A stretch of DNA of 32,000 bases from Nostoc sp. (GTDB lineage: Bacteria; Cyanobacteriota; Cyanobacteriia; Cyanobacteriales; Nostocaceae), in NCBI RefSeq assembly GCF_036919555.1, contig NZ_JBALCS010000100.1, forward strand, positions 69,934-101,933, written 5' to 3'. Positions 834 to 25,840 of the stretch are shown piece after piece. The notes below the pieces were generated by a model, which was not told where the DNA came from, ran no database searches, and worked only from the letters and a program-made list of their open reading frames with translations. The position numbers and the translations under genes were made by a program. Numbering within the stretch: position 1 is the first letter of the stretch; every line of letters begins with the position of its first letter.

Positions 834-2126
834 TCAATTAATTCCCTTTAGTATATAAGTCATCATTTCACCTTTACCCTTAACCATAATTAAACCTCGT
901 TTCTCCAAAAAGTATTTATCCTTTAAAAGCTGATAAGTTGCTTCACAAACCTGGATACTACCTGCTATACCATGTGATTCCATTCTACTAGCTGTATTAA
1001 CTGTATCTCCCCAAAGGTCGTAGGCAAACTTTTTCAGCCCAATCACCCCTGCCACAACTGGCCCTGTACTAATGCCAATACGGATGCTAAAAGACTGGTT
1101 ATTTTCTTCGTTAAACGTAGCTATAGCATTTTGCATATTCAAGGCCATGTTAGCTATTACTGGAGCATGGTTATTAGACTTATTTGGCAACCCCGCAACA
1201 GCCATATATGCATCGCCAATCGTCTTGATTTTCTCTACTCCATGACGTTCTGCTAATTGGTCGAACAAACAGAATATTGTATTTAATAACTCGACTAATT
1301 CGGCAGGAGATGTCCGAGTTGAAAGCTCTGTAAAGCCAACAATATCGGCAAATAGCACCGTAACTTCTAGAAAGCTATTGGCAATAGTTGTATACTGTTG
1401 TTTTAATTGTTCTACAATCATCTCTGGTAGAATATTTAGTAGCAGCATTTCTGATTTTTGCTGCGCTAGTTCCATTGCCTTACGGGCGTAAAATTCTTTT
1501 TTTCGCAAGCGTTCGTATAAATAGACAGAGAAGACACAAATTATGCAGGTCCAAAATAAGTATAAACCCTGCTCCATGTAAAAAGCGAATGGATTTTTTA
1601 ATATAGGATTATATAAGATATATAAAATTAAATAGCAAACAATTGTTCCAATTTGCGAAATTAAATGTATCCACCATTGCACTGGAACGATTGTAGCCTG
1701 AGTGAGAAACATCAGAGTCCAAATATTACTTCTAGGTTCCAGACTATTAAACAACAAAGCTATATCAATTTGGACAGCACAAGTTACAGACCAGCATAAA
1801 CTCAAAAAAATTAAGTTTGGGTAACGACGACCTATAGAGTTTTTACATAAACCCCAACAAATGAACGTGAATAGTTCTACTAAAAGACCGATTTTGAAGG
1901 CGTATATCTTGCCTTCTAATTGTGAATTTGCCCAAAGAAAAAAAGCGATCAAAGTCAAGCCAGCTACTAGGATAATCTGCGCTTGCAATTGCAGCCGTTT
2001 CAGCTGAAAGCTCTGTCGCTGTTCTTTGTAGGATTCGGCAAGATTATTGTTGGTTTGCCCATAGGACATTCCGTGACTAATGAGCGTATCTAGTTGGGTT
2101 TTGTCTGAGTTATTTGGATGAATCAT
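834..2126 (-). CDS. Membrane-anchored class III adenylate/guanylate cyclase
   Basis: 430-aa ORF. The N-terminal half has several hydrophobic helices. The C-terminal half carries cyclase homology domain motifs: VLFADIVGFTELS, KTIGDAYMAVAGLP, YDLWGDTVNTASRMES. Confidence 0.9.
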   Translation of the reverse strand: MIHPNNSDKTQLDTLISHGMSYGQTNNNLAESYKEQRQSFQLKRLQLQAQIILVAGLTLIAFFLWANSQLEGKIYAFKIGLLVELFTFICWGLCKNSIGRRYPNLIFLSLCWSVTCAVQIDIALLFNSLEPRSNIWTLMFLTQATIVPVQWWIHLISQIGTIVCYLILYILYNPILKNPFAFYMEQGLYLFWTCIICVFSVYLYERLRKKEFYARKAMELAQQKSEMLLLNILPEMIVEQLKQQYTTIANSFLEVTVLFADIVGFTELSTRTSPAELVELLNTIFCLFDQLAERHGVEKIKTIGDAYMAVAGLPNKSNNHAPVIANMALNMQNAIATFNEENNQSFSIRIGISTGPVVAGVIGLKKFAYDLWGDTVNTASRMESHGIAGSIQVCEATYQLLKDKYFLEKRGLIMVKGKGEMMTYILKGIN

Positions 2127-2190: not shown

Positions 2191-2239
2191 CCAATGCCCA
2201 ATGCCCAATGCCCAATGTCCAATGCCCAATGCCCAATAC
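2191..2239. repeat. Heptamer tandem repeat (CCAATGC x7, two degenerate units), STRR-like
   Basis: Direct reading: ccaatgc ccaatgc ccaatgc ccaatgt ccaatgc ccaatgc ccaatac. It sits in the divergent intergenic region between the cyclase and the helicase. It generates the spurious MPNAQCPMSNAQCPIL N-terminal extension seen in the ORF track. Confidence 0.9.
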
Positions 2240-2241
2240 TC

Positions 2242-3864
2242 ATGGTTCGCACCCCCACATTAAATTTTGATCGTGGCACATTAATTTTGCATCCACCACC
2301 ACGCGGCAAAGGTTGGATGGATTATGCTACGTGGGATGATCGAGTTGAAAAATTCCGCATTCCGGCGATTAGATACCGATCGCTAGTGGAAGCACTACAA
2401 GCGGAAGATGTTAATTTTATCGATGAGGCCAAGCAATTTTATCCTGTAGATTTGGTTCCCAGCCTGGAAATGGAACCCTATGCCCACCAGACTGAGGCGC
2501 TAGCGGCTTGGAAACTGGCGGGTAGACTAGGGGTAGTTGTGCTTCCTACGGCGGCGGGAAAGACTTATTTGGCGCAAATGGCGATGCAGTCAACGCCACG
2601 CACGACGCTGATTGTGGTGCCAACTTTGGATTTAATGCATCAGTGGTATGCACACTTAGTAGCGGCTTTCCCTGATGCTGAGGTGGGATTGCTGGGGGGT
2701 GGTTCGCGGGATAGAACGGCTATTTTAGTTGCAACTTATGATAGTGCAGCAATTCACGCCGAAACGTTGGGAAATCAATATGCGTTGATTGTTTTTGATG
2801 AATGTCATCATTTACCGACAGATTTTAATCGGGTGATTGCTGAATATGCGATCGCACCTTATCGGCTGGGACTCTCCGCGACACCGGAACGCACTGATGG
2901 TAAACACGCTGACTTAAATATTCTCATTGGCCAAGAAGTATATCGCAAACGCGCTGAAGATTTGGCGGGAAAGGCGTTAGCAGAACATGAAATTGTTCAA
3001 ATTAAGGTAAAGTTATCGCAACTTGAGCGGGAAAGATACAATCAACTAATTCAAACCCGCAACGACTTTTTGAAGCAATCTAAGATTTCTTTGGGGAGTC
3101 TTCAAGGTTGGCAAATGTTCGTGCAAATGAGTGCTAGATCGCAATCTGGACGTAGAGCTATGTTAGCGCACCGGGAAGCAAAAGATATCGCCTTGGGTAC
3201 TGATGGTAAATTGCGAATTCTGGTTAATTTATTGGCAGAACATTATCCGGCAAGAATTTTGATTTTTACTGCTGATAATGCAACGGTTTACCGCATTTCT
3301 CAAGAGTTACTAATTCCGGCAATTACCCATCAAACTCCTGTAAAGGAACGGCATGAGATATTAACAAAGTTTCGAGAGGGTAAATATAATACTTTGGTTG
3401 CTTCTCATGTGTTGAATGAAGGTGTTGATGTGCCTGCGGCTTCTGTGGCAATTATTTTATCGGGAACGGGTTCGGCTAGGGAGTATACTCAGCGATTGGG
3501 GAGGGTTTTACGGAAGGGGAATATTGAGAATAAGCGGGCGATTTTATATGAGGTGGTGGCGGAGGATACGAGTGAGGAAGGGACTTCGGCGCGGCGGAGA
3601 GGGGAGAGGAGTAACGAACCACGAAGGCGCGTTCACGAAGTGTCTCGAAGAGAAGGACACGAAGGGAAGAAAGAGAATAAAGGGAAGTTAGAGGTTGTGT
3701 ATGGGAGTGGGAAGGAAGGGAGTTTGAAGGCTGCGGAACAGTTAGAGATTAATTATTCAACTGGAAGTTCAAAATCTAAAATTCCAAATTCAGATGTTAC
3801 CGACAGATTTACTGATGCATCGCCAAAACGGGGAGGAGATTATTCCGAAGAGACTGAAGATTGA
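2242..3864 (+). CDS. Superfamily 2 DNA helicase, XPB/Ssl2-like (DEAH type), with a low-complexity basic C-terminal tail
   Basis: Helicase motifs: I LPTAAGKT, Ia VVPTLDLMHQW, II VFDECHHL, III LGLSATPER, V LVASHVLNEGVDVP, VI QRLGRVLR. I placed the start at ATG 2242 (MVRTPTLNFDRGTL) because 2194-2241 is the heptamer repeat. It is followed by a DUF790/Bax1-type gene, the usual XPB partner. Confidence 0.85.
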   Translation: MVRTPTLNFDRGTLILHPPPRGKGWMDYATWDDRVEKFRIPAIRYRSLVEALQAEDVNFIDEAKQFYPVDLVPSLEMEPYAHQTEALAAWKLAGRLGVVVLPTAAGKTYLAQMAMQSTPRTTLIVVPTLDLMHQWYAHLVAAFPDAEVGLLGGGSRDRTAILVATYDSAAIHAETLGNQYALIVFDECHHLPTDFNRVIAEYAIAPYRLGLSATPERTDGKHADLNILIGQEVYRKRAEDLAGKALAEHEIVQIKVKLSQLERERYNQLIQTRNDFLKQSKISLGSLQGWQMFVQMSARSQSGRRAMLAHREAKDIALGTDGKLRILVNLLAEHYPARILIFTADNATVYRISQELLIPAITHQTPVKERHEILTKFREGKYNTLVASHVLNEGVDVPAASVAIILSGTGSAREYTQRLGRVLRKGNIENKRAILYEVVAEDTSEEGTSARRRGERSNEPRRRVHEVSRREGHEGKKENKGKLEVVYGSGKEGSLKAAEQLEINYSTGSSKSKIPNSDVTDRFTDASPKRGGDYSEETED

Positions 3865-5008
3865 TCAGAAAACTTCGGAGTTGGCGATTGAGTTAATTAA
3901 TTATTTTCAATCAGCAGTGGGGAAGACTCAGGGTGTGCTTGAGCGACAACTGACTGATTTTGAAGGAGATTCTACAGATTATCGGGTGAAGCGGGGATTA
4001 GCTTATATTCTCAAAAGCAGTTTTTGCACTTTTGAGGTAGTTAGTCCTTTGGAACCACAAATGTTAAGAGAACGGGTGTTTTCGCTAGCTTCAAAGTCTG
4101 TTTCTAGTCGGGAATCAACACAAGTTACTCTTGGTAAAGTTGCTGATGAGTTAACTCAAGAACTTGAACGGGAAGTTTTATTGGAACAGGTTCGGAATGG
4201 ACTATATGCTGATTTATCTGAAAATAAGATTTTGACTGTGTTTGATGCACCAACAGCACCAGATTTGTTGAATCGATATAATTTATCTCAGGTACAGGGT
4301 GTGTTTTATAAGGCCAGTCAACTGGTGTTAAATGCTCATCGGAATGTTCCGGGTGAATATAAGCTGTTATTCCGCTATTTAAAGTTGTTTCAATTGATGG
4401 CTTATATTGAGGGCGATGCTGACCACGGGTTTACAATTACCATTGATGGGCCGACGAGTTTGTTTAGTTCTAGTACGCGGTATGGGTTAGCGATCGCAAA
4501 ACTTATTCCTGCTTTACTTCACGTTACTAGATGGAGTCTTTCTTCGATTCTCCAAAGCCGCGACGCTTATACAAATACTTGGAAAACTGGACGTTTCACT
4601 CTCAATTCTGAATGTGGTTTGGTATCTCATTATCCACCAGGGAAGCCCTACGATAGTATGCTAGAAGCATCCTTTGCTGATAAGTGGGATGCGTTGAAAA
4701 GTGGTTGGGCGTTAGAGCGAGAAGTTGATTTGATCCCAATTCCCGGTAGCGTGATGATTCCCGATTTTCGCTTGGTGCATTCTGATGGACGCACTTTCTT
4801 ATTAGAAATTGTTGGTTATTGGCGACCTGAATATTTACAAAAAAAGTTTTCTCAGGTGCGGCGGGCTGGACGTGACGACTTGATTTTGGCAATTTCTGAG
4901 CGACTTAATTTAGAAAAGGCGGGAGTAAAATTAAATGATGTCCCCGGAAGAATTGTTTGGTTTAAAGATAAGTTATTGCCGAAAGCTGTGTTAGCTGTGA
5001 TGGATTGA
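3794..5008 (+). CDS. DUF790 / Bax1-type endonuclease (XPB-binding nuclease family)
   Basis: 404-aa ORF. It begins MLPTDLL and has a C-terminal nuclease signature, SVMIPDFRLVHSDGRTFLLEIVGYWRPEYLQKK, which I recognise as DUF790. Its start overlaps the helicase 3' end by 71 nt. Confidence 0.8.
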   Translation: MLPTDLLMHRQNGEEIIPKRLKIDQKTSELAIELINYFQSAVGKTQGVLERQLTDFEGDSTDYRVKRGLAYILKSSFCTFEVVSPLEPQMLRERVFSLASKSVSSRESTQVTLGKVADELTQELEREVLLEQVRNGLYADLSENKILTVFDAPTAPDLLNRYNLSQVQGVFYKASQLVLNAHRNVPGEYKLLFRYLKLFQLMAYIEGDADHGFTITIDGPTSLFSSSTRYGLAIAKLIPALLHVTRWSLSSILQSRDAYTNTWKTGRFTLNSECGLVSHYPPGKPYDSMLEASFADKWDALKSGWALEREVDLIPIPGSVMIPDFRLVHSDGRTFLLEIVGYWRPEYLQKKFSQVRRAGRDDLILAISERLNLEKAGVKLNDVPGRIVWFKDKLLPKAVLAVMD

Positions 5009-5023
5009 TTAAGGAGAAATGAG

Positions 5024-5266
5024 ATGAAAAGTATAGAAACAATTGCCACGGTTACAAAAGATGGTAAGATTACAGCGCAATTACCATTGGATATTCCAGA
5101 GGGTGAACATCAGGTGGTAATAGTAATTGATGAAAAGCCTTTGGCAGAGAAAGCAGAGAGCAAGGAACAACGCCCTCCTCTAAACTTCCCTGTAGATAAT
5201 TATGGTTATTGGCCTGAAAATCTTTCTCTAAGACGTGAGGATATGTATGGTGATTGGGGTCGCTAA
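5024..5266 (+). CDS. Putative type II antitoxin (VapB-like partner of the downstream PIN toxin)
   Basis: 80-aa ORF with a good RBS (aaggagaaatgag before the ATG). It starts 15 nt after the Bax1 stop and overlaps the PIN gene start. Small size and an acidic C-terminus are typical for antitoxins. I cannot assign the fold family by eye. Confidence 0.6.
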   Translation: MKSIETIATVTKDGKITAQLPLDIPEGEHQVVIVIDEKPLAEKAESKEQRPPLNFPVDNYGYWPENLSLRREDMYGDWGR

Positions 5267-5699
5267 CTCTGTATTTCTGGACACGAACATTTTAGTGTAT
5301 GCAAATGTGTCCGAATCTCCCTTTCACCAAGCAGCACTACAGGCTATTGAAAATCTTTATGACGCAGGAATTGAATTATGGATTAGTCGCCAGGTGTTGC
5401 GGGAATTCTTAATGACTCTTAGTCGTCCACAAGCATTGATGAATCCCCGACCTGTTGCGCTCATAATTGAGCGTACCCGATTTTTTCAAGCTCAATTTCG
5501 AGTAGCTGATGAAACCGCCCAAGTGACAGAAAGACTTTTATCTCTAATGGAGCAAATTACTATTGGTGGTAAGCAAGTTCATGATGCAAATATTGTTGCC
5601 ACGATGCTAGTTTATGGCATTCCTCAGTTACTCACTCACAACATAGGTGATTTTGTAAGATTTTCTGGGTTAATTACTGTCTTGCCATTACAAGGTTAA
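5247..5699 (+). CDS. vapC: PIN-domain ribonuclease toxin, VapC family
   Basis: PIN signature: N-terminal VFLDTNILVY acidic motif and, later, VHDANIVATML. About 150 aa. It overlaps the upstream small ORF by 20 nt. Alternative starts are GTG 5235 and GTG 5250. Confidence 0.8.
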   Translation: MVIGVANSVFLDTNILVYANVSESPFHQAALQAIENLYDAGIELWISRQVLREFLMTLSRPQALMNPRPVALIIERTRFFQAQFRVADETAQVTERLLSLMEQITIGGKQVHDANIVATMLVYGIPQLLTHNIGDFVRFSGLITVLPLQG

Positions 5700-5810
5700 C
5701 GCCGTGTGCGACTTTATCTCAAACCTAACCCCCAACCCCTTCCCTACTAGCGTTGGGGAGCAAGAATCAAAGCCTCTCGACCTTTCGGGGAGAGGAATGG
5801 AAGCGGGGTT
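5699..5810 (-). mobile_element. Truncated copy of a small MITE-like dispersed repeat (same family as 26118-26276, opposite orientation)
   Basis: acgccgtgtgcgactttatctcaaacctaacccccaacccc...ggggagcaag..aaagcctctcgacc...ggggagaggaatggaagcggggtt aligns with the reverse complement of 26118-26276, with internal indels. The distal terminal inverted repeat is missing. The element begins at the last base of the vapC stop codon. Confidence 0.75.
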
Positions 5811-5840
5811 CCAATTTCGGTAATTGTACAATTCCACTGG

Positions 5841-6533
5841 CTAACCCCAAACGTTTCTGCGTTCCCAATATTGGACAACTCTTTTTTCCCACTGTTCCCA
5901 GTAATCTTTGATGACTGCTGATTCAAACCAAAATACCTCTGCTGGCATTTCTGGAATCGCTACTACCAAAAGAGCGTGCTTTAACTGAATACCATAATCT
6001 CGATAATACTCGTTAGCGGCTCCTATGTATGCCGTAAGTTGCAGTGGATGTTCATATAAATGCTCAATTGAGCCTTTGGGTTTGTCTGCTGTTTTCCACT
6101 CACAAATACAAGGAATACCTTGATAGCTGGCTATACAATCAACTTTGCCAGAATAACTCAAATCATGATGAAAAACAGAGCCTTCCACGAGTCTAACTGT
6201 GTCGATTTGTTGTAAAACTGGCTGGATACTCTCCCAATAAGGGCGACTCGCTTCGGGACAAACAGGGTTTTGTCCAAGGAGGTAGCGCTCAATTTGTTTG
6301 TGTGTTTGGGTTCCCCGACGGCTAGCAGTTGTAGTAATGCGGGTAGCTTCTTCTGTACCAACACGCGCTTTCCAGTTTAATAATCTGTCTCTGTCTGCTT
6401 GTGATTTGGTGGTATTAAGTATTGTAGTAACGCTAGGGAAGCGATTTCCGTTGGCATCTACATAATATTGTTTACCATTTTCTCTCTTGGCTGTGGCATT
6501 AATGCTTGGTAGCAGTTGGGTATCAAATTGCAT
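5841..6533 (-). CDS. PD-(D/E)XK nuclease, RecB-family or Cas4-like exonuclease fold without an obvious Fe-S cysteine cluster
   Basis: 230-aa ORF. It has FPSVTTIL and RGTQTHKQIERYL N-terminal motifs, a catalytic-type GKVDCIA...CICEWKT block (D-x12-E-x-K), and a downstream QLTAY (QxxxY) motif typical of RecB-like nucleases. Confidence 0.75.
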   Translation of the reverse strand: MQFDTQLLPSINATAKRENGKQYYVDANGNRFPSVTTILNTTKSQADRDRLLNWKARVGTEEATRITTTASRRGTQTHKQIERYLLGQNPVCPEASRPYWESIQPVLQQIDTVRLVEGSVFHHDLSYSGKVDCIASYQGIPCICEWKTADKPKGSIEHLYEHPLQLTAYIGAANEYYRDYGIQLKHALLVVAIPEMPAEVFWFESAVIKDYWEQWEKRVVQYWERRNVWG

Positions 6534-6626
6534 CAGTTGGTGTGTTGACTTTAATGTGTGTGATATATTTCCGAAATAGACAGAGCTACATTTGTATCTC
6601 CAAGTGCAATTAACTATTTTATAATT

Positions 6627-7088
6627 ATGGAACTTGTAACACTGACGGCGGCTGGAATCGCAACTCTTATTTTCTCAGAAGCCCTCAAAGAAGGAGGAAA
6701 AACTTTAGGAAAAGGTGTTTCAGAAAAAGTTGCTCAACTCTTGAATGCTATTCGTGAAAAGTTCCAGGCTGCGGGAACTGAAGGACTACTGACACGAGCG
6801 CAAGAAAATCCTATAGAGAAGAATACCTCAAAGTTCCAAGATGAACTGGAAACACAGATGGAAGAAGATGAAGCCTTTGCCAACCGTTTACAGGAATTAA
6901 TGACGCAGCTTAAATCAAACGAAACGATTAATCAAATTGTTCTCAAGGGAGTTCAGGTAAAAGGTAAGGCTAAAGTAGGCGATATAGATTTGGCAGCCAC
7001 GAGAGACGGTTCAGTGAATCAAGAAGCGGTGGTTGATTCTCAATTTGGCGACGATCTTGACGTTGGTGATGTGAACATAAAAGCCTAA
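6627..7088 (+). CDS. Small helical protein with a hydrophobic N-terminal helix and a duplicated C-terminal Q..VGD motif. Candidate Bell/HeLo-like membrane-targeting effector paired with the downstream NLR.
   Basis: 153-aa ORF ending 4 nt before the NB-ARC gene start. N-terminus MELVTLTAAGIATLIFSEAL is hydrophobic and rich in small residues. The middle is charged and helical. The C-terminus carries NQIVLKGVQVKGKAKVGDIDL and NQEAVVDSQFGDDLDVGDVNIK. Confidence that it is coding is high. The functional call is an inference. Confidence 0.6.
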   Translation: MELVTLTAAGIATLIFSEALKEGGKTLGKGVSEKVAQLLNAIREKFQAAGTEGLLTRAQENPIEKNTSKFQDELETQMEEDEAFANRLQELMTQLKSNETINQIVLKGVQVKGKAKVGDIDLAATRDGSVNQEAVVDSQFGDDLDVGDVNIKA

Positions 7089-7092
7089 AATC

Positions 7093-9540
7093 ATGAACGA
7101 TCGCCCTAACTCTGAGAAAATACAGCAGAGTGCGTTTGAAAATGTTCAAGCCCGCGATATCACAGTTGGGAGCTTTACCCAGAATGAAAACCAGGGGAAA
7201 ACTCCCAAGGCAAAAGGTATTCCGCAAAATCTTCCCCTGAGTGGGGTGTTAAAGTTTGTTGGACGTGAAGCCGAACTGCAAACCCTTCACCAGATGTTGC
7301 AGGAAGATAATCAGGTGGCCATTGCAGCGATCGCTGGCATGGGTGGACTGGGTAAAACAGAATTGGCCTTACAATATGCAAAGGCTCACCGTGAAACTTA
7401 CAAGGGTGGAATTTGCTGGTTACTGGCAAGGGCTGGAGATCTGGGCATTCAAGTTGTACAGTTTGCCAGAACGCAGCTTGACTTAAACCCGCCAGAGAAT
7501 TTAACAGAAGATTCTAACCAAAAATTACTCGCGCAAGTCCAATATTGCTTTCGGCATTGGCGTGAGGGTGATGTGCTGCTAGTGTTGGATGATGTCAGTG
7601 ATTACGAGCAAGTCAAGCCTTATCTACCATCGCCATCTTCCCGATTTAAAGTGCTGATGACTACACGTCAGTACTTTGGAGGCATAGCAAAATTATCTTT
7701 GGATGTGCTGCAACCAGAAGCGGCGCTGGAGTTATTAAAGTCTTTACTCAAAGATACACCGGGGCGAATTGAAAAAGAATTAGCTGTAGCAAATCAATTG
7801 TGTGAGTGGCTGGGATATTTGCCCTTGGGTTTGGAATTAGTGGGGCGATATCTAGCGCGGAAACGGGATTTGTCTGTAACAGAAATGTTGCGGCGATTGA
7901 AAGAAAAACGACTAGATGAGCGTTCCCTCTCTAAGTCCAAGTCAGAAGGTAACATGACAGGACAACGGGGTGTGTTAGCAGCTTTTGAGTTAAGTTGGCA
8001 GGAATTAGAGGATGATGACAAGCAGCTTGGTTGTTTGCTGAGTTTATTTGCCGCCGCACCTATATCTTGGAAATTGGTGGAACACTGTTTACCAGATGAA
8101 GACGAGGAAGAGTTAGAAGAAATTAGAGATGATAAGTTGTTGAATTTGCATTTACTTCAGCGCAAAGATGAGGGAGTTTATCAACTACATCCACTGCTAA
8201 GGGAGTTTTTTCAATATAAGCTTATAGATTTACAGCAAGCAGAGGAATTAAAGCGATCGCTTTGCCAAGTAATGGTAGTAGTAGCAAAAGATATTCCTCA
8301 GACACCCACATTGAGAGATATTGCTCAAGCAACTCTTGCCATCCCTCATCTTGCAGAAGCTGCCACAGTTTACCAAGCTTGGTTAAGCGATGATGATTTA
8401 ATCTGTCCTTTTATAGGCTTGGGTAGATTTTACGAAGGTCAAGGAGCTTACACCCAAGCATTACCGTGGCGTGAACAATGTTTATCAGCTGCTAGAAAAC
8501 GTTTTGGGGATGAACACCCTTCTGTGGCAATTAGCCTAAACGATTTGGCAGGACTCTACGATTCACAAGGAAAGTACAGCGAAGCCGAACCTTTGTACAT
8601 CCAAGCTTTGTCCATATATAAACGCCTGCTGGGGGATGAACATCCAGATGTGGCAATTAGCCTGAACAATTTGGCAGAACTCTACCGTTTACAGGGAAGG
8701 TACAACGAAGCTGAACCTTTGTACATCCAAGCTTTATCCATGAGAAAACGCTTGCTGGGGGATGAACATCCAGATGTGGCACAAAGCGTAAACAATTTGG
8801 CAGGATTCTACGTTTTACAGGGAAGGTACAGCGATGCCGAACCTTTGTACATCGAAGCTTTGTCCATGAATAAACGCCTGCTGGAGAATGAACACCCAGA
8901 TGTGGCACAAAGCCTGAACAATTTGGCAGAACTCTACCGTTTACAGGGAAGGTACAACGAAGCCGAACCTTTGTACAAGGAAGCTTTTTCAATGAGAAAA
9001 CGCTTGCTGGGTGATGAACACCCAGATGTGGCACAAAGCCTGAACAGTTTGGCATTACTCTACCACTCACATGCAAGGTACAGCGATGCCGAACCTTTGT
9101 ACAAGGAAGCTTTGTCCATCAGAAAACGCCTGCTGGGCGATGAACACCCAGATGTAGCAATTAGCCTGAACAATTTGGCAGAACTCTACCGTTTACAGGG
9201 AAGGTACAACGAAGCCGAACCTTTGTACAAGGAAGCTTTGTCCATGAGAAAACGCTTGCTGGGCGATGAACACCCAGATGTGGCACAAAGCCTGAACAAT
9301 TTGGCATTACTCTACCACTCACATGCAAGGTACAGCGATGCCGAACCTTTGTACAAGGAAGCTTTGTCCATCAGAAAACGCCTGCTTGGAGATGAACACC
9401 CAGATGTGGCACAAAACCTGAACAATTTGGCAGCATGCTACTATTCACAGGAAAGGTACAGCGATGCCGAACCTTTGTTCATCCAAGCTTTATCCATGAG
9501 AAAACGCCTGCTGGGGGATGAACACCCAGATGTGGCATAA
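7093..9540 (+). CDS. STAND/NLR-like NTPase: short N-terminal motif region + NB-ARC domain + TPR (kinesin-light-chain type, 42-aa) array. The reading frame is stopped by an in-frame TAA inside the TPR array.
   Basis: NB-ARC motifs: P-loop GMGGLGKTELA, Walker B LLVLDDV, MTTR, and a GLPL-like LGYLPLGLEL. These are followed by repeats of xSLNNLAxLYxxQGRYxxAEPLYxxALSxRKRLLGDEHPDVA. Only about 55 aa precede the NTPase domain, so there is no fused effector domain. Confidence 0.9.
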   Translation: MNDRPNSEKIQQSAFENVQARDITVGSFTQNENQGKTPKAKGIPQNLPLSGVLKFVGREAELQTLHQMLQEDNQVAIAAIAGMGGLGKTELALQYAKAHRETYKGGICWLLARAGDLGIQVVQFARTQLDLNPPENLTEDSNQKLLAQVQYCFRHWREGDVLLVLDDVSDYEQVKPYLPSPSSRFKVLMTTRQYFGGIAKLSLDVLQPEAALELLKSLLKDTPGRIEKELAVANQLCEWLGYLPLGLELVGRYLARKRDLSVTEMLRRLKEKRLDERSLSKSKSEGNMTGQRGVLAAFELSWQELEDDDKQLGCLLSLFAAAPISWKLVEHCLPDEDEEELEEIRDDKLLNLHLLQRKDEGVYQLHPLLREFFQYKLIDLQQAEELKRSLCQVMVVVAKDIPQTPTLRDIAQATLAIPHLAEAATVYQAWLSDDDLICPFIGLGRFYEGQGAYTQALPWREQCLSAARKRFGDEHPSVAISLNDLAGLYDSQGKYSEAEPLYIQALSIYKRLLGDEHPDVAISLNNLAELYRLQGRYNEAEPLYIQALSMRKRLLGDEHPDVAQSVNNLAGFYVLQGRYSDAEPLYIEALSMNKRLLENEHPDVAQSLNNLAELYRLQGRYNEAEPLYKEAFSMRKRLLGDEHPDVAQSLNSLALLYHSHARYSDAEPLYKEALSIRKRLLGDEHPDVAISLNNLAELYRLQGRYNEAEPLYKEALSMRKRLLGDEHPDVAQSLNNLALLYHSHARYSDAEPLYKEALSIRKRLLGDEHPDVAQNLNNLAACYYSQERYSDAEPLFIQALSMRKRLLGDEHPDVA

Positions 9541-9789
9541 AACCTGAACAATTTGGCAGCATTCTACTATTCACAGGGAAGGTACAGCGATGCCGAACCT
9601 TTGTTCATCGAAGCTTTATCCATGAGAAAACGCTTGCTGGGGAATGAACACCCAGATGTGGCAATTAGCCTGAACAATTTGGCAAAACTCTACCATTTAC
9701 AGGGAAGCTATAGCAAAGCCGAACCTTTGTTCATCCAGGCTTTGGATATTTGTGAGCAACAGTTAGGGGTTGATCATCCCCTAACTGTT
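8530..9789 (+). repeat. Tandem array of ten 126-bp (42-codon) TPR-encoding units with high nucleotide identity
   Basis: Unit boundaries read directly at 8530, 8656, 8782, 8908, 9034, 9160, 9286, 9412, 9538 and 9664. Units 4+5 (8908-9159) and 6+7 (9160-9411) differ at about 10 of 252 positions. Confidence 0.9.
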
Positions 9790-9846
9790 AGTGTGCATGA
9801 AAATTTAGCAGATTTGCGCGATCGCCTCTCCTCAAATCAAGAATAG
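9541..9846 (+). pseudogene. In-frame 3' continuation of the NB-ARC/TPR gene (two more TPR units and a C-terminal cap), separated by the single TAA at 9538-9540
   Basis: Same frame as 7093 (both coordinates are 1 mod 3). The translation NLNNLAAFYYSQGRYSDAEPLFIEALSMRKRLLGNEHPDVAISLNNLAKLYHLQGSYSKAEPLFIQALDICEQQLGVDHPLTVSVHENLADLRDRLSSNQE continues the repeat register exactly. The ORF-track start at 9553 is a TTG inside a repeat unit. Confidence 0.8.
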
Positions 9847-10241
9847 GCAAGTTTTGTGCAAAGCGTACCATGTTAAAAGTTAGATTTGCGATCGCCTGAA
9901 TTCAACCGTTCGTTTTCTGAATTCGGCCCTTCGTTTTCTAAGACTGATCCCTCTCCTAAAACTGATTAAACTACATTCAGAGCGATCGCTTCTCGGCAAA
10001 TCTGAACTCGGCGGTTAAAGAACTCCATAACTGGGGCGACTTTTACGTAATGCTTTGGCTAACCACCAAAAAGGTGATCGCCCATCTACCAGGAAAAACG
10101 ATCGCATGAGTGGAACCTTATCTCAATCGTTAATTTCATGCTAAATTTGAGCTAAAATTATTCGGTAATTGCAGGTAATTTCAGGAGATTTACGATAATA
10201 ATATCACCGTAAATCACGGCGGCAAAACTATGCTTCCAATT

Positions 10242-10266: not shown

Positions 10267-10271
10267 CGTAA

Positions 10272-10344
10272 TGGGCAGTACCAGACTCGAACTGATGACG
10301 TCCTGCTTGTAAGGCAGGCGCTCTACCAACTGAGCTAACCGCCC
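10272..10344 (-). tRNA. tRNA-Val (anticodon UAC)
   Basis: The minus-strand sequence gggcggttagctcagttggtagagcgcctgccttacaagcaggacgtcatcagttcgagtctggtactgccca folds as a cloverleaf. It has a 7-bp acceptor stem, D arm gctc/gagc, anticodon stem cctgc/gcagg with loop cTTACaa, and a T arm with a ttcgagt loop. It is 73 nt and CCA is not encoded. Confidence 0.92.
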
Positions 10345-10479
10345 AATCCTTAACTACTATAGCAAAATATTTCGCGTTGCGCTAGTAGTTTTGGGAAAAT
10401 CTTTTTTTCTCTTATACTGACTCAATATTCAGTTACTCAACACGGGCTAAACGCCCCGCTATCGCTAACAGGATTTAGG

Positions 10480-16819: not shown

Positions 16820-17539
16820 TTAACGCTGAGTCTGTAATCTTTTCATTTCGTCTTGCACATCTAACGCAATTTGTAATGCTTCATTGAGCAACCTTCCATG
16901 TTCGGTAGCCTGTTCGGTTACTTGCATGGCTGTTAAAGTTGCTAAATTGTTGACGAATAATTCTGTATTACTAAGGATAAAGCTCTTATGCTCCCTCAAA
17001 ATCCTTTCTGTCTTCAAAGCGCGAACTAAATCAGCTTTGGTGAGTTTAAGCGCTTCGATAACACCTTCCCTTTCCTTTATAACTACTTCTGGATTACCAG
17101 CTTCTTCTATTTGGTCATTAATATCTATTACTCTAATAACAGTATTATATCTACTCACCTCATTTAACAGAGTTTGCAGAGATTTTGTCATATTAATTTT
17201 GACAATTTTCTTTCTAGTTTTCCAGATTAAATATAAGATAGTTTGCGTAAGTCCGCCAACCCAAAGACCTAAGATAATTAACAATATCCAAGATGGAACT
17301 GTGATCCACGTCACAAAAAATTTAATAATTATATCAAATAAAATATAGACAAAAACAAATGTAGAAAATCCAATAAAAACTACAGTTGCACCTTCAGAGC
17401 TTTTCAGCTTTTGGATATATATATTTGCTAATAGTTTCAGAGGATTTGTGATGATTAAAAGTTGCTCATTGACAGGCAAATTAGCCAGCTTTTGTAGTTC
17501 ATCCTGACTAATTTCCAAGCCCTGTAAATCATCCCGCAC
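16820..17539 (-). CDS. Hypothetical membrane protein (two adjacent TM helices followed by a long helical C-terminal domain)
   Basis: 239-aa ORF, AT-rich. It has hydrophobic stretches VVFIGFSTFVFVYILFDIII and ILLIILGLWVGGLTQTILYLIW. I recognise no family signature. Confidence 0.55.
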   Translation of the reverse strand: MRDDLQGLEISQDELQKLANLPVNEQLLIITNPLKLLANIYIQKLKSSEGATVVFIGFSTFVFVYILFDIIIKFFVTWITVPSWILLIILGLWVGGLTQTILYLIWKTRKKIVKINMTKSLQTLLNEVSRYNTVIRVIDINDQIEEAGNPEVVIKEREGVIEALKLTKADLVRALKTERILREHKSFILSNTELFVNNLATLTAMQVTEQATEHGRLLNEALQIALDVQDEMKRLQTQR

Positions 17540-21852: not shown

Positions 21853-23640
21853 TCAAAAAGGATTATAGAATAAACTAAAATACAGACCGTTTTCTTGTAA
21901 TGTTCTCTCATTTGAGTCAACAGATACTAAAGGAATGCCCCAGTCAAGACGAACGGTGAAGCGATCGCTCTGTGACCAACGCAAACCCAGACCAACAGCA
22001 GCTAGAATATTATGATCGGGATTCTTTTCACCAGAACTATTCCAGCCAATACCAAAATCCGCAAAGGGGACAACCTGTAAGGTGCTATCTATCTGGGGTA
22101 AGCGCAGAATCGGTACTTGAACTTCAGCAGAAACAAAAGTGCCATTATCCGTCAGCAGGTAATCTTGACGGTAGCCTCGAATGCTATCCTGCCCACCTAA
22201 GCCAAATTGCTCTAAAGGTAATAGTGTTCTGGATGCGAGTTGCGTATTTAAACGAAGTAATAGTAAGGTTTCAGGAGCTAAAAGGCGTGCCCACTGCGCT
22301 TGCCCTTGCCAAGCAAAAAAACGGCTGTCGGGAGGATTTTGATTAATCGTGGGATTCAACGCATCTATGCCCAAACTAAATTGAGAGCGGAGGGCGATGA
22401 CTTCATGGCTGTTACGAGAAGTCCATTCTTGAAAAAATCGCAACGCAGATACCTTGGTGCGTCCCTGTTCATCAGCGCCTAAACCGGGGAAAGCTAGTCG
22501 CTCTCCCAAGGGGGAATAGGAGGCTTCACTTTCCCGTCGGGAGGCTGTCAACCCCACGGCGAATTCTTGTGTCGGAGTTTGAACTATGGGCTGGCGAAAT
22601 GTTAGTTCGTAATAGCGAGAAGCCGATTGGATATCTAAAACGTTGAAAGGAGGTTCAATGACATTACTTGAGGTAGTGCCATAGTTGAAACTCAGGGTTC
22701 CGTTCTGGGGATTGAGTGGTAATGTATAGCTGGCGTCAAAGGAGTTGCTACCATCGGTATTAGTGTAAGCTACACCTAGAGCGTCTCCCAGTCCCAATAA
22801 GTTGGCTTCATTCAATTGTAATCGGCGGCGGAAACTGCCAACGCTAGGCGATCGCCCATTATCAAGAATTATTTGGCTACTAAAGGTTTTTGCCTCACTG
22901 ATCTTAACTTCTAAGAGACTCACACCATTTTGCGATCCTGCCGAGAGTTCAGCAGAGACGTTTTGAATCAAAGGATTAAGTTGCAAAAGTTGCAGTGCCT
23001 CTAGTAGACGCTGGCGATTCAGAGGCGGTGATGTCGCTATTGCTAGTCGGCTACGGACATAATTCGGATTCAACCGCCGAGTCCCAGTTACGTGGATATC
23101 TTCTAATTTACCTTCCACCACCTGAATTTTAACAACACCCGATCGGATTGTTTGGGGTGGAATATAGGCACCAGAAGTAATGTAACCATTTTTGACGTAT
23201 AGATCAGTGATTTTAGAACGTGCTTGATACACTTCAGTCAGTGAGATCGGTCGTTTCGTAAATTCAGCAGTGGCTTTGGCTAACTCTTGGGCACTGAAGA
23301 CTGTGCTACCAATAACTTCAAACCGTTCAACAACAATACTTTGAGGAAAGTTACCAGGTAGTGGTTCCTCAGGTGTGGGAGTTGGGGCAGAGGGGGGAAA
23401 TAGTTCTGCTGGTGGGGGAAGTGGCTGTGGCAGTTCCGGTGAGGGAAGTGGCGAAGGTGCAGGTGGTTGGACATCCTGTGGTGGTGGGAGTTTTTGCGAC
23501 AGGATGAAATTACTAGTTGGTAATTCTTTAGTATCAATAGCCTGAGCTTTCTCTGGACTAGAAGATATGCTGCTGAGTGATAGAAGCATACTCAGAGGTA
23601 AGCAGGAGACTATCAGATTCTGAGGATATTTATCAATCAT
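21853..23640 (-). CDS. ShlB/FhaC/HecB-family outer-membrane transporter (TpsB of two-partner secretion) with signal peptide, proline-rich linker, POTRA and beta-barrel
   Basis: 595 aa. It has an N-terminal signal-like segment and a PPPQDVQPPAPSPLPSPELPQPLPPPAELFPPSAPTPTPEEP linker. The POTRA-like block is VERFEVIGSTVFSAQEL...YVKNGYITSGAYIPPQ. The C-terminal barrel has alternating beta-strand character and ends with the aromatic YNPF. Confidence 0.8.
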   Translation of the reverse strand: MIDKYPQNLIVSCLPLSMLLSLSSISSSPEKAQAIDTKELPTSNFILSQKLPPPQDVQPPAPSPLPSPELPQPLPPPAELFPPSAPTPTPEEPLPGNFPQSIVVERFEVIGSTVFSAQELAKATAEFTKRPISLTEVYQARSKITDLYVKNGYITSGAYIPPQTIRSGVVKIQVVEGKLEDIHVTGTRRLNPNYVRSRLAIATSPPLNRQRLLEALQLLQLNPLIQNVSAELSAGSQNGVSLLEVKISEAKTFSSQIILDNGRSPSVGSFRRRLQLNEANLLGLGDALGVAYTNTDGSNSFDASYTLPLNPQNGTLSFNYGTTSSNVIEPPFNVLDIQSASRYYELTFRQPIVQTPTQEFAVGLTASRRESEASYSPLGERLAFPGLGADEQGRTKVSALRFFQEWTSRNSHEVIALRSQFSLGIDALNPTINQNPPDSRFFAWQGQAQWARLLAPETLLLLRLNTQLASRTLLPLEQFGLGGQDSIRGYRQDYLLTDNGTFVSAEVQVPILRLPQIDSTLQVVPFADFGIGWNSSGEKNPDHNILAAVGLGLRWSQSDRFTVRLDWGIPLVSVDSNERTLQENGLYFSLFYNPF

Positions 23641-23998: not shown

Positions 23999-25840
23999 CT
24001 AAAGATCCATACCCCTTTGCTTAAACATTCCCATCAATTTATGTTTCCGAGCGTGGGTTTGCATCAAGTTTTCCCGATAGCTTAACCAGTCTGCTTTCTT
24101 CCCAGATTCCAAGTAGGCATTACGTGCCTTTTTCAACCATTCAACCGCATAGTAGTAGTATTCGGCTTTACCTGCATTCATAATCTTTTCGGCACGACGA
24201 CAAGCATTAGCAATCACCCAACCCGGATTGTGAGGGATAGCAGCATCCATGACTCGGTGAATCAACTCGGAATAATAAGAACTGAGTTCACTAACGATCG
24301 CAATTGCATCATCAATTAGCCCTTCATATAAAAATATATCCACCTTGTCTGATTCTGTTCCCCAACCACTATCAGTACGGATAATTTTCAGCAGGTCTGT
24401 TTTGAGGCTTTCCCAATTTTCCCCAGCCAATTCTGTCATCTTTTGGTAGTCAACAAAGCAAGGTTTGACTTGAAAAGCCGCCTTGATTGCTAATAAAGCA
24501 GCTTGACTATTACCCCATTCCAGAGCCAAATCACTTGTCCAAATTCCCAATTCGTACTGACAATTACCCGGTAAATTTAATCCACTCTGGGCTATATCTA
24601 GTGCTTGCTGTAATGCCCCCTGAACGCTGAGTGTTTTCGCTAAAGCAAAGGCTTCTTCCATTGAGTTCATCTGGGTTTGAGCAGCATCAATTGCTTCTTC
24701 CACTCTACCTAAACGCCCTAGCATTGTTAGATACTGCTGGGTTTGTCCTTCCGCTTCTGCTAAATATAGGTATTCTTGGTAACGTTCCTGACGTTCGAGA
24801 ATTTTCAGCCGAATTAGTGCCAAATCATCTGCATAATCTGGCACGTCTTCTTCCCAAGCTCCCCTTTCGGTGATATTACCTTGGATAACTTGCACCAGTG
24901 GCGGATAATCCCAACCTTGGCGTAAAGCCTCCATAACTAGGCCAAAATCAGCATTCCATTCATCTTGCCAGGTTTCCAAATTTATTTGAATATCAACTTT
25001 TTCTTCTGGGGTCAGCTCCACACTGAGAATTGCTTCACACCAGGCATTATTCAATTCTCCGACAATTTGATCATTTTCAACGCCGTATTCTGCAACCTCA
25101 TGCCAATTTTCCACACAGGTAGAGGTAATCACTTCTAAAATAGCGATCGCATTTTCACCCTCTCCCTGTTCGCTAAAATCTATCGCAGTTTGGACTACAC
25201 TCAGCAATTCCCCGGCAATCGGGTCTTCTTCGCACCCCTCCTCAAAGTAACGCACGGCATCCCGGAGAATCTGCCGTACTTGTCCCCGAAAGGGAGCCGG
25301 ATCAATAGTACTACGGCGCAGAGGTTTTGTGGTTGTTTCCTCCCCAGCAGGATTGATCATCCAATTAACATGGCGGTTAATCGCCTCGATTAGTGGTGGG
25401 TATTCTGTTACCAAATTTTGCAGCAGCCTTTGAGTTTGGATATGATCCAAGCGATCGAGTAGTTGTTCTAAGGTAGGGCGCTGCTCAATATTTTCTGAGT
25501 TACGCGCACAAACGAGCATCGTCGCTACAATGTGTTTGCACCAACCCTCAAAGTTGTAACCACAGGTACAGTTGACTGAGGTTAACCCACTGCTATCGAA
25601 ACTCAGATTGACATGATCAGGTCTAGTTTGATTGCCCATAACATCTGCCTGAAGCAGATGACCACGTTGGGTAACAGCATTGACAGCACCAGCTGCATAG
25701 TATGCCTCGCCCTGCTGGAAAGATTTGGCGTTAGCATGACGGCGGATAGTAAATTCACTAATTTGGGGAATAGACATGGAGCAATTGCCATTGGATTTAG
25801 TCACAGATTTTTGTAGTAAAGCAGAGTTAAGCGTAGTCAT
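23999..25840 (-). CDS. SWIM zinc-finger domain protein with a long helical-repeat C-terminal region
   Basis: 613 aa. The SWIM CxCx(n)CxH signature is VNCTCGYNFEGWCKHIVATML. The remainder is alpha-helical and TPR/HEAT-like by composition. Confidence 0.8.
   Translation of the reverse strand: MTTLNSALLQKSVTKSNGNCSMSIPQISEFTIRRHANAKSFQQGEAYYAAGAVNAVTQRGHLLQADVMGNQTRPDHVNLSFDSSGLTSVNCTCGYNFEGWCKHIVATMLVCARNSENIEQRPTLEQLLDRLDHIQTQRLLQNLVTEYPPLIEAINRHVNWMINPAGEETTTKPLRRSTIDPAPFRGQVRQILRDAVRYFEEGCEEDPIAGELLSVVQTAIDFSEQGEGENAIAILEVITSTCVENWHEVAEYGVENDQIVGELNNAWCEAILSVELTPEEKVDIQINLETWQDEWNADFGLVMEALRQGWDYPPLVQVIQGNITERGAWEEDVPDYADDLALIRLKILERQERYQEYLYLAEAEGQTQQYLTMLGRLGRVEEAIDAAQTQMNSMEEAFALAKTLSVQGALQQALDIAQSGLNLPGNCQYELGIWTSDLALEWGNSQAALLAIKAAFQVKPCFVDYQKMTELAGENWESLKTDLLKIIRTDSGWGTESDKVDIFLYEGLIDDAIAIVSELSSYYSELIHRVMDAAIPHNPGWVIANACRRAEKIMNAGKAEYYYYAVEWLKKARNAYLESGKKADWLSYRENLMQTHARKHKLMGMFKQRGMDL

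Follow-up and report, generated by a model that had tools for sequence, protein, structure and literature searches.

Two adjacent genes in a 32,000-nucleotide (nt) stretch of Nostoc sp. DNA (contig NZ_JBALCS010000100.1, positions 69,934 to 101,933; the whole stretch is hereafter called the window) probably form a Bell/BASS4-NLR amyloid-signalling module, a bacterial analogue of the fungal HET-S/NWD2 pair. A probability of roughly 0.72 is assigned to this reading. The first gene encodes a small protein of 153 residues, the putative effector, with a helical domain and a C-terminal tail carrying two BASS4 pseudo-repeats; the second encodes a nucleotide-binding oligomerization domain (NOD)-like receptor (NLR), the putative sensor, with an NB-ARC domain, an array of tetratricopeptide repeats (TPR) and a single BASS4 motif near its N-terminus. 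The open reading frame (ORF) of the small protein, which begins with MELVTLTAAGIATLIFSEAL in the ORF list, ends at 7088, and the ATG of the NLR follows at 7093, as seen both in the ORF list and in the raw sequence (for the coordinates of these and of the other features see Table 1). The two genes are therefore collinear, on the same strand with a gap of 4 nt, the downstream one joining NB-ARC to about ten TPR units, and they are likely to be carried on one transcript; promoter and terminator scans gave results no better than shuffled sequences. Among the collinear pairs surveyed by Dyrka et al. (2020; bioRxiv 10.1101/2020.01.06.895854), 57% are separated by 10 bp or less.

An exact look-up identified the small protein as MEH2412621.1 / WP_335120991.1 of Nostoc sp. 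It falls in the same 90% cluster as OYD94771.1, with which it shares 136/153 identities (89%) by BLASTP, and it also matches OYE01065.1 (P0034, locus L016) at E 6e-38. Both proteins are found in the bass_04 set of Table S2 of Dyrka et al. (2020), where OYD94771.1/OYD94772.1 are given as a Bell/NLR pair with an NB-ARC/TPR partner, a Bell-side motif KSNETINQIVLKGVEVKGKAKVGDINL and an NLR-side motif ILQSILQNVQVGGNLTTGNITQ, together with the pairs OYE01065.1/OYE01066.1, BAZ20404.1/BAZ20405.1 (Scytonema, locus L032) and BAZ86411.1/BAZ86410.1. The identity of 89% to a listed protein, along with the features of the catalogue, places the window pair in the Bell-domain/BASS4 class; homology to Bell is drawn through OYD94771.1 and OYE01065.1. 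As judged from sequence, the pair is a Bell/BASS4 pair of the class catalogued computationally in 2020 and no new kind of system.

From a structural perspective, the definition of Bell by Dyrka et al. (2020) asks for about 100 residues folded into helices, the N-terminal one hydrophobic, and for an acidic residue at position 2 or 3; these features are all seen or predicted in the small protein. In fact, it starts M-E-L-V-T-L-T-A-A-G-I-A-T-L-I-F, with an acidic E at position 2 and a Kyte-Doolittle value of 1.97 over residues 1-17, and AlphaFold2 (AF2) confidently predicts a helical domain for residues 1-100 taken alone (predicted local distance difference test, pLDDT, 88.4; predicted template modelling score, pTM, 0.82), with helices at 2-16, 18-23, 29-49, 52-60, 64-80 and 82-98. 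In the full-length model (overall pLDDT 74.8) the helices run up to residue 97. The small protein has 155 homologues at E<=1e-3, nearly all of them 150-156 residues long, and wherever the source is named it is a cyanobacterium that forms filaments or colonies. The family alignment displays a conserved N-terminus (consensus MEPxTLTAAAIATLIFSEALKEGGK, where the window protein reads MELVT), a helical body and a C-terminal pair of similar 23-residue segments joined by a short linker. An N-terminal motif of the 'MEPIS' type is common to Bab, Bell, Hell, Avast2 and some antiphage NLRs, and the folds of Bell domains are highly variable in topology (Ibarlosa et al., 2024; bioRxiv 10.1101/2024.11.07.622273). 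Searches of Pfam, PADLOC and NCBIfam with the small protein returned no family above threshold; the matches to CsgF (E 0.055), GvpT (E 0.0012, 19 bits where the cut-off is 80) and NFACT-C are sub-threshold noise, and the name 'Fis family transcriptional regulator', attached to some homologues in their source, has no domain support.

A profile of the helical domain collected 516 clusters at 50% identity (E<=0.001). Modularity of the parts is seen in P0135, P0173, P0174, P0183, P0193, P0194, P0151, P0153 and P0154. The same type of helical domain occurs with other C-terminal motifs ('..NFTFNDEVKGSAFG..NNKW', '..SSIGNVSSGSNTTIGDIN..'), behind long N-terminal extensions that are possibly TIR-like (P0194, P0151) or at the head of long proteins; conversely, in P0115 a tail of the window type is joined to another N-terminal helical domain. 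The other tail types found on this domain, such as NDEVKGSAFG, were sought in Table S2 of Dyrka et al. (2020) and none was found there.

The tail of the window protein contains the pseudo-repeats NQIVLKGVQVKGKAKVGDIDLAA and NQEAVVDSQFGDDLDVGDVNIKA, separated by TRDGSV. Their local alignment score, 31, is reached by 31 of 5000 shuffles (it beats 99.4% of them), and the tail has a high content of Q, N, G and V and an alternation of hydrophobic residues. In the full-length AF2 model a beta tail spans residues 102-152, with strands at 102-104, 114-117 and 120-123 in repeat 1 and at 131-133, 143-146 and 149-152 in repeat 2; the second set equals the first shifted by 29 residues, the pattern expected of two stacked beta layers, and is predicted with moderate confidence. 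The Bell-side motif given for OYD94771.1 in Table S2 is the same stretch as repeat 1 (96-122), and for other family members the second repeat (125-151) was taken as the Bell-side motif, pseudo-repeats being mentioned in the text for BASS1 and BASS6 only (Dyrka et al., 2020). A double repeat of the HET-s kind in BASS4 may thus go slightly beyond that catalogue.

The counterpart of this motif is found at residues 10-31 of the NLR, IQQSAFENVQA-RDITVGSFTQN, which resemble the catalogued NLR-side VVQRILENVWAGRDITIGDIHQ of OYE01066.1. Hidden Markov models (HMMs) of the effector repeats match the downstream proteins of many related loci, always within residues 10-60 and with E values from 1e-5 to 1e-2, the best reversed-sequence control reaching E of about 1. 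On the window NLR the match fell where expected but was weak (E 3), and for this reason the reverse, NLR-side profile was built from 27 distinct motifs of other loci, none of them from the clade of the window. This profile scores 25.1 bits on the window NLR, above all 2000 shuffles of its N-terminus (maximum 7.8), and 5.8 bits on residues 103-120 of the effector, a score attained by 11 of 2000 shuffles (p ~0.006). One profile matching both proteins argues that both carry the same motif type, and at profile level the C-terminus of the effector and the N-terminus of the adjacent NLR share a motif. A recognisable N-terminal motif is likewise present on downstream NB-ARC proteins elsewhere, as in VQKIFENVQAEGNITVGNITQIYQ.

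The pairing itself is conserved among filamentous cyanobacteria. A scan of one genome per species yielded 61 related cyanobacterial loci, in each of which the next ORF after the small gene was extracted and scored against the NB-ARC region of the window; an NB-ARC gene lies directly downstream in about 35 of them, mostly after 3-4 nt, and the pairing is therefore not due to chance. A preliminary description of this DNA, made from its letters alone, had seen a 153-residue ORF 4 nt ahead of a same-strand NB-ARC/TPR gene of roughly 917 codons without fused effector, and had proposed a Bell/BASS or HET-S/NWD2-like pair in which the small protein has a hydrophobic N-terminal helix, a helical body and a beta-prone tail. 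The gene arrangement was borne out by the ORF list, the raw sequence and Pfam, the make-up of the small protein by its hydropathy and the predicted helices (2-98) and strands (102-152), and the class by the catalogued relative, the motif shared at profile level and the conserved adjacency. Two of the checks that it had suggested, structure prediction and neighbourhood conservation, also came out in its favour.

In about ten related loci the downstream gene is not of the NB-ARC type, yet it starts with a BASS4-like motif. Six of these partners have hydrophobic segments resembling transmembrane ones followed by TPR repeats, with no NTPase domain; the others comprise one with a weak HEAT-repeat match, one weakly NACHT-like with several hydrophobic segments and two 171-residue proteins of unknown family. 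Moreover, NLR partners appear to be exchanged. The effector gene of locus L003 is 93% identical in DNA to that of the window (window 6553-7096 against L003 5927-6470) and the similarity ends at the NLR start codon, the NLR of L003 being another paralogue whose BASS4 head also differs; L009-L012 are also listed for the same break. Such a break at the 4-nt junction suggests, from the alignments, sensor swapping by recombination at that point. At the nucleotide level, the stretch of effector plus NLR is 76-89% identical to close relatives and the shared left flank 87-95%. Partner exchange at the gene junction and NOD-less partners headed by BASS4 may, too, extend the catalogue slightly. A bolder proposal, which is considered rather improbable, is that the Bell/BASS4 effector acts as a common death 'socket' for interchangeable sensors plugged in through BASS4 as an address label. 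Should the membrane-bound TPR partners devoid of NTPase really trigger the effector by amyloid templating, nucleation would occur without the STAND oligomerisation engine, and in cyanobacteria, too, NLRs would cease to be the limit of the paradigm, as Agp has shown for E. coli.

The architecture is what was observed here, and each dynamic step of the proposed mechanism is modelled on HET-S/NWD2 and Bab/Agp. By analogy with them, the TPR array would bind a ligand, perhaps a phage or another non-self cue, and oligomerisation of NB-ARC would cluster the N-terminal BASS4 motifs, which would adopt a cross-beta fold. This nucleus would template the double repeat of the effector into a two-rung beta-solenoid; the refolding would destabilise the helical bundle and free helix 1, which would insert into the membrane and kill the cell, through abortive infection or regulated cell death within the filament. 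Amyloid formation by BASS4 is suggested by the AF2 prediction of two beta layers, of moderate confidence, the proof in the literature being for BASS1, BASS3 and BASS11; membrane-targeted killing is suggested by the hydrophobic helix 1 and by the precedent of Bab and HET-S.

Several observations weigh against the proposal that this pair is an amyloid-signalling module. The first is a premature stop in the NLR gene. Pfam places NB-ARC at residues 59-281 (E 5e-18), with Walker A GMGGLGKT at 82-89 and Walker B LLVLDD at 162, and about ten TPR_12/TPR_10 units from about residue 460; no effector domain was found in the roughly 58 residues ahead of the NOD. Tandem Repeats Finder reports a period of 126, 9.8 copies and 87% matches. 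The units are near-identical, the differences being confined to a few positions (as in ELYRLQGRYNE, LLYHSHARYSD and ACYYSQERYSD), and their number varies widely among relatives, so that the array shows the sequence pattern of a rapidly reshuffling repeat sensor. The reading frame of 917 codons, closed by a stop at 9844-9846, is however interrupted by one internal TAA at codon 816 and reads as an 815-residue product followed by a 97-residue ORF. This TAA aligns with a CAA (Gln) of the preceding unit, in the context '...DVAQNLNN...', and in a frame otherwise intact it is explained by a one-base nonsense change.

The pair could consequently be a genuine Bell/NLR module by descent that does not function here, the sensor being unstable, ligand-blind or a pseudogene and the small gene persisting as an orphan, a possibility judged unlikely on balance yet deserving of serious attention. 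The frame remaining intact past the stop points to a recent change, and the 815-residue product loses the last 2.4 or so TPR units and the C-terminal cap (LGVDHPLTVSVHENLADLRDRL), whose motif LG.(N/D)HP.T...NL..LRD is kept by most other full-length relatives listed; the loss of the cap argues for impairment of the shortened sensor. That product, however, keeps the BASS4 head, the complete NB-ARC/NOD and about 8.4 TPR units, and the relatives vary so widely in repeat number, some intact ORFs being shorter (696-786 residues), that a shorter array is not necessarily dead. Furthermore, the assembly is of the metagenome type and the array highly repetitive, conditions under which one base may be called wrongly, so that TAA816 may be either a real allele or an assembly artefact. 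No independent copy of the nonsense allele emerged: the 815-residue product is not on record, the only indexed contig of the effector is 1.5 kb long, and metagenome contigs scanned for the exact pattern, with either C or T accepted at the stop site, gave no match. Owing to the truncation of the sensor, the module of the window may be weakened or inactive.

The other unfavourable observations concern the motif and the fold. A one-residue deletion sets the NLR motif of the window apart from other BASS4 heads, and the identity of this motif to the effector tail is about 26% by eye; the BLOSUM62 local alignment of NLR residues 1-50 with the effector tail is non-significant by itself (p ~0.15), which is why profile tests were used instead, and across loci cognate motif pairs are no more alike than non-cognate ones (permutation p = 0.22). 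In the full-length model the tail has pLDDT values of only 55-76. Foldseek searches of the PDB with the full-length and N-terminal models gave best E values of 0.8-1.9 and TM scores of at most 0.41, recovering neither Bab nor HeLo, with Rx-CC (4m70) and the HELLF fibril (6eka) at noise level only, and PDB sequences searched with a profile gave no match. Comparison with HeLo and HeLo-like profiles, also suggested in the preliminary description, gave no support: Pfam found no HeLo, HeLo-like or SesA match, and neither sequence nor structure assigned the small protein to the HeLo, HeLo-like, MLKL or CC (RPW8, Rx_N) families. As no significant match emerged from the PDB, the tie of the Bell domain to HeLo, MLKL, CC and Bab (Babybell) is one of analogy and of a conserved N-terminal segment.

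These data could suit a different role, in which the beta-prone segments mediate a stoichiometric complex (by strand augmentation, or as adaptor or inhibitor) instead of amyloid templating, the small protein being perhaps a membrane anchor or a regulator and not a pore-former. The low motif similarity within the pair, the lack of closeness between cognate motifs, the lack of a structural match to known pore-forming bundles and the restriction of the published tests to BASS1 and BASS3 would all agree with it. Such a complex nevertheless seems distinctly improbable, since two stacked pseudo-repeats on the effector and one on the sensor reproduce the HET-S/NWD2 layout (Dyrka et al., 2020), the tail has the Q/N/G/V-rich composition and the alternation of hydrophobic residues described above, related BASS motifs form prions and cross-seed, and Bab/Agp works by amyloid conversion.

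A third explanation, that the NLR belongs to an FxSxx-COOH/cyclophane system of ribosomally synthesized and post-translationally modified peptides (RiPP) or to a SARP/AfsR-type system, with the small ORF as precursor peptide or unrelated co-transcribed gene, starts from the NCBIfam FxSxx_TPR match on NLR residues 54-674 (317.5 bits against a cut-off of 300, a generic NB-ARC plus TPR similarity) and from HaaT and AfsR models matching far below their cut-offs, and is rejected on gene content as extremely improbable, because the window holds no radical-SAM/SPASM maturase (FxsB) or other Fxs gene, the small protein ends in ...GDVNIKA and not in FxSxx and is a predicted helical protein of 153 residues and not a short precursor, and Pfam finds no DNA-binding SARP domain in the NLR. 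PADLOC, for its part, gave no Avs-type match to the NLR, which hit only a generic TPR model and, faintly, mad8 (E 0.008); with the effector devoid of any PADLOC match, the pair was not recognised as a known anti-phage system of that database.

Table 1. Positions of the gene pair, its motifs and neighbouring features in the window (aa, amino acids), and of the non-NB-ARC partner genes in related loci.
Feature	Position	Strand	Basis or remark
Bell-domain effector gene with BASS4 tail, 153 aa plus stop	6627..7088	+	ORF, homology
Helical domain of effector	6627..6920	+	AlphaFold2 on N-terminal alignment
BASS4 pseudo-repeat 1, aa 102-124, NQIVLKGVQVKGKAKVGDIDLAA	6930..6998	+	Repeat alignment, profile, AF2
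BASS4 pseudo-repeat 2, aa 131-153, NQEAVVDSQFGDDLDVGDVNIKA, after 6-aa linker TRDGSV	7017..7085	+	AF2
Spacer AATC	7089..7092	+	Between effector stop and NLR start
NB-ARC + TPR NLR gene, 917 codons, nonsense-interrupted	7093..9846	+	Pfam
NLR-side BASS4 motif, aa 10-31, IQQSAFENVQARDITVGSFTQN	7120..7185	+	Profile match
Array of ~10 near-identical 42-aa (126-nt) TPR units + C-terminal cap	8476..9846	+	Tandem Repeats Finder
In-frame TAA, codon 816, within TPR unit 9	9538..9540	+	Unit layout
Class III cyclase	834-2126	-	Left flank
XPB-like SF2 helicase (XPB_DRD + ResIII + Helicase_C)	2194-3864	+	Left flank
DUF790 protein	3794-5008	+	Overlaps XPB-like helicase by ~70 nt
80-aa ORF overlapping 154-aa PIN-domain ORF, VapBC-type arrangement	5024-5699	+	Left flank
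PD-(D/E)XK nuclease	5841-6533	-	Left flank
tRNA-Val (anticodon TAC)	10271-10345	-	425 nt downstream of NLR stop
Non-NB-ARC partners	L037:6467-8668, L039:6492-8264, L047:6464-8254, L021:6534-8558, L015:6730-8067		
Non-NB-ARC partners	L044:6560-7399, L052:6471-9122, L038:1145-3208, L014:6461-6976, L042:559-1074		

The preliminary description had placed the pair among defence-type genes, and this holds only in part. The left flank holds the helicase, the DUF790 protein, the VapB-like/PIN pair and the PD-(D/E)XK nuclease, whereas the right flank contains the tRNA-Val, DUF2227 and MazG and then, as in the rest of the window, housekeeping and signalling genes. The helicase and the DUF790 protein recall the archaeal XPB-Bax1 helicase-nuclease pairing; in PADLOC the helicase hits PbeA models (E 1e-51), which reflects generic helicase similarity, and no other Pbe component was found. 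The VapBC-like pair is missing from locus L001, where similarity is broken over window 5119-5828 and about 2.8 kb do not match, and it is kept in L002 and L013. On the other side, DNA similarity between the window and its relatives does not continue past the NLR stop in any case, and all ten relatives scanned lack any tRNA gene at the locus; the tRNA-Val region possibly marks the edge of an island or a site of rearrangement. Between the NLR stop and the tRNA gene lies a 21-nt direct repeat, CTGAATTCAACCCTTCGTTTT (2.1 copies, window 9896-9939). Farther to the right, two ORFs on the reverse strand (23999-25840, 613 residues; 16820-17539, 239 residues) have no Pfam family at E<=1e-5, and the longer adjoins a ShlB/FhaC-type two-partner-secretion transporter (21853-23640).

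With regard to the published record, amyloid-templated signalling from NLR to effector is established in fungi; among bacteria the only case so far demonstrated is Bab/Agp, which is not an NLR system. BASS1 and BASS3, including the BASS3 pair of Nostoc punctiforme, behave as prions in Podospora and assemble into fibrils in vitro, and for both the NLR-side motif converts the Bell-side motif (Dyrka et al., 2020). Bab/Agp gives abortive infection against phage T5 through amyloid signalling, and what the many Bell/NLR pairs of filamentous cyanobacteria and actinobacteria do biologically 'remains to be elucidated' (Ibarlosa et al., 2024); a 2026 review (PMC13506858) still words their role as a suggestion. 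The literature contains no experiment on BASS4, or on any Bell/NLR pair in its native host (Ibarlosa et al., 2024; PMC13506858), a further point to be set against the functional reading. The preliminary description had stated that no such module was characterised in cyanobacteria: this stands for the biological function, although not for the prions and fibrils of the BASS3 pair, and since the class was predicted for cyanobacteria in 2020 and that pair has been studied as a prion, the novelty that it implied is not there. The interest of the window pair lies rather in its being a clean and compact example of BASS4, with a double repeat like that of HET-s, a sensor allele that appears naturally truncated and sensor-swapped relatives, three features that could conveniently be used to examine BASS4 templating, sensor specificity and cell death in Nostoc, in contexts such as cyanophages and filament-level cell suicide.

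Compared with known systems, the window NLR shares with Avs/Avast and bNACHT the logic of a STAND NTPase joined to a repeat sensor. In Avast2 and bNACHT02/11/23 a 'MEPIS'-type N-terminal helix is fused directly to the NLR, whereas here the effector is a separate gene linked by a short shared motif, and none of the Avs models of PADLOC fits the window NLR. Bab/Agp of E. coli ECOR25 (Babybell with BASS11), an abortive-infection system by experiment, is alike in that the motif is common to the N-terminus of an adjacent TPR-containing sensor. Bab differs in its length of 109 residues, its 80-residue domain and its single BASS11 motif, with neither a PDB sequence match nor a fold match to the window effector; Agp is a TPR-GreA/B-C-PIN sensor and not an NLR.

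HET-S/NWD2 of Podospora anserina consists of a HeLo pore-former with two HRAM pseudo-repeats and of a NACHT-WD NLR with one R0 motif, encoded by adjacent genes as in the window. The effector resembles HET-S in its helical domain with a hydrophobic N-terminal helix, in its two loop-separated pseudo-repeats and in their predicted two-rung beta arrangement, and the NLR resembles NWD2 in having one N-terminal motif copy and no effector domain. The differences are that the effector has no detectable sequence or Foldseek similarity to HeLo, that the NOD region is NB-ARC plus TPR instead of NACHT plus WD, that the motif belongs to the BASS4 family, with 23 residues and a 6-residue linker, and that the host is bacterial. 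As for the cyanobacterial Bell/BASS4 pairs of Dyrka et al. (2020), the window NLR departs from them by a head one residue shorter and by its nonsense codon, and from OYD94772.1 in being another paralogue, with the head IQQSAFENVQARDITVGSFTQ instead of ILQSILQNVQVGGNLTTGNITQ; it agrees with them in NLR architecture, with the motif at residues ~10-31, and the pair as a whole is like them in effector family, tail motif, gene order, strand and tight spacing.

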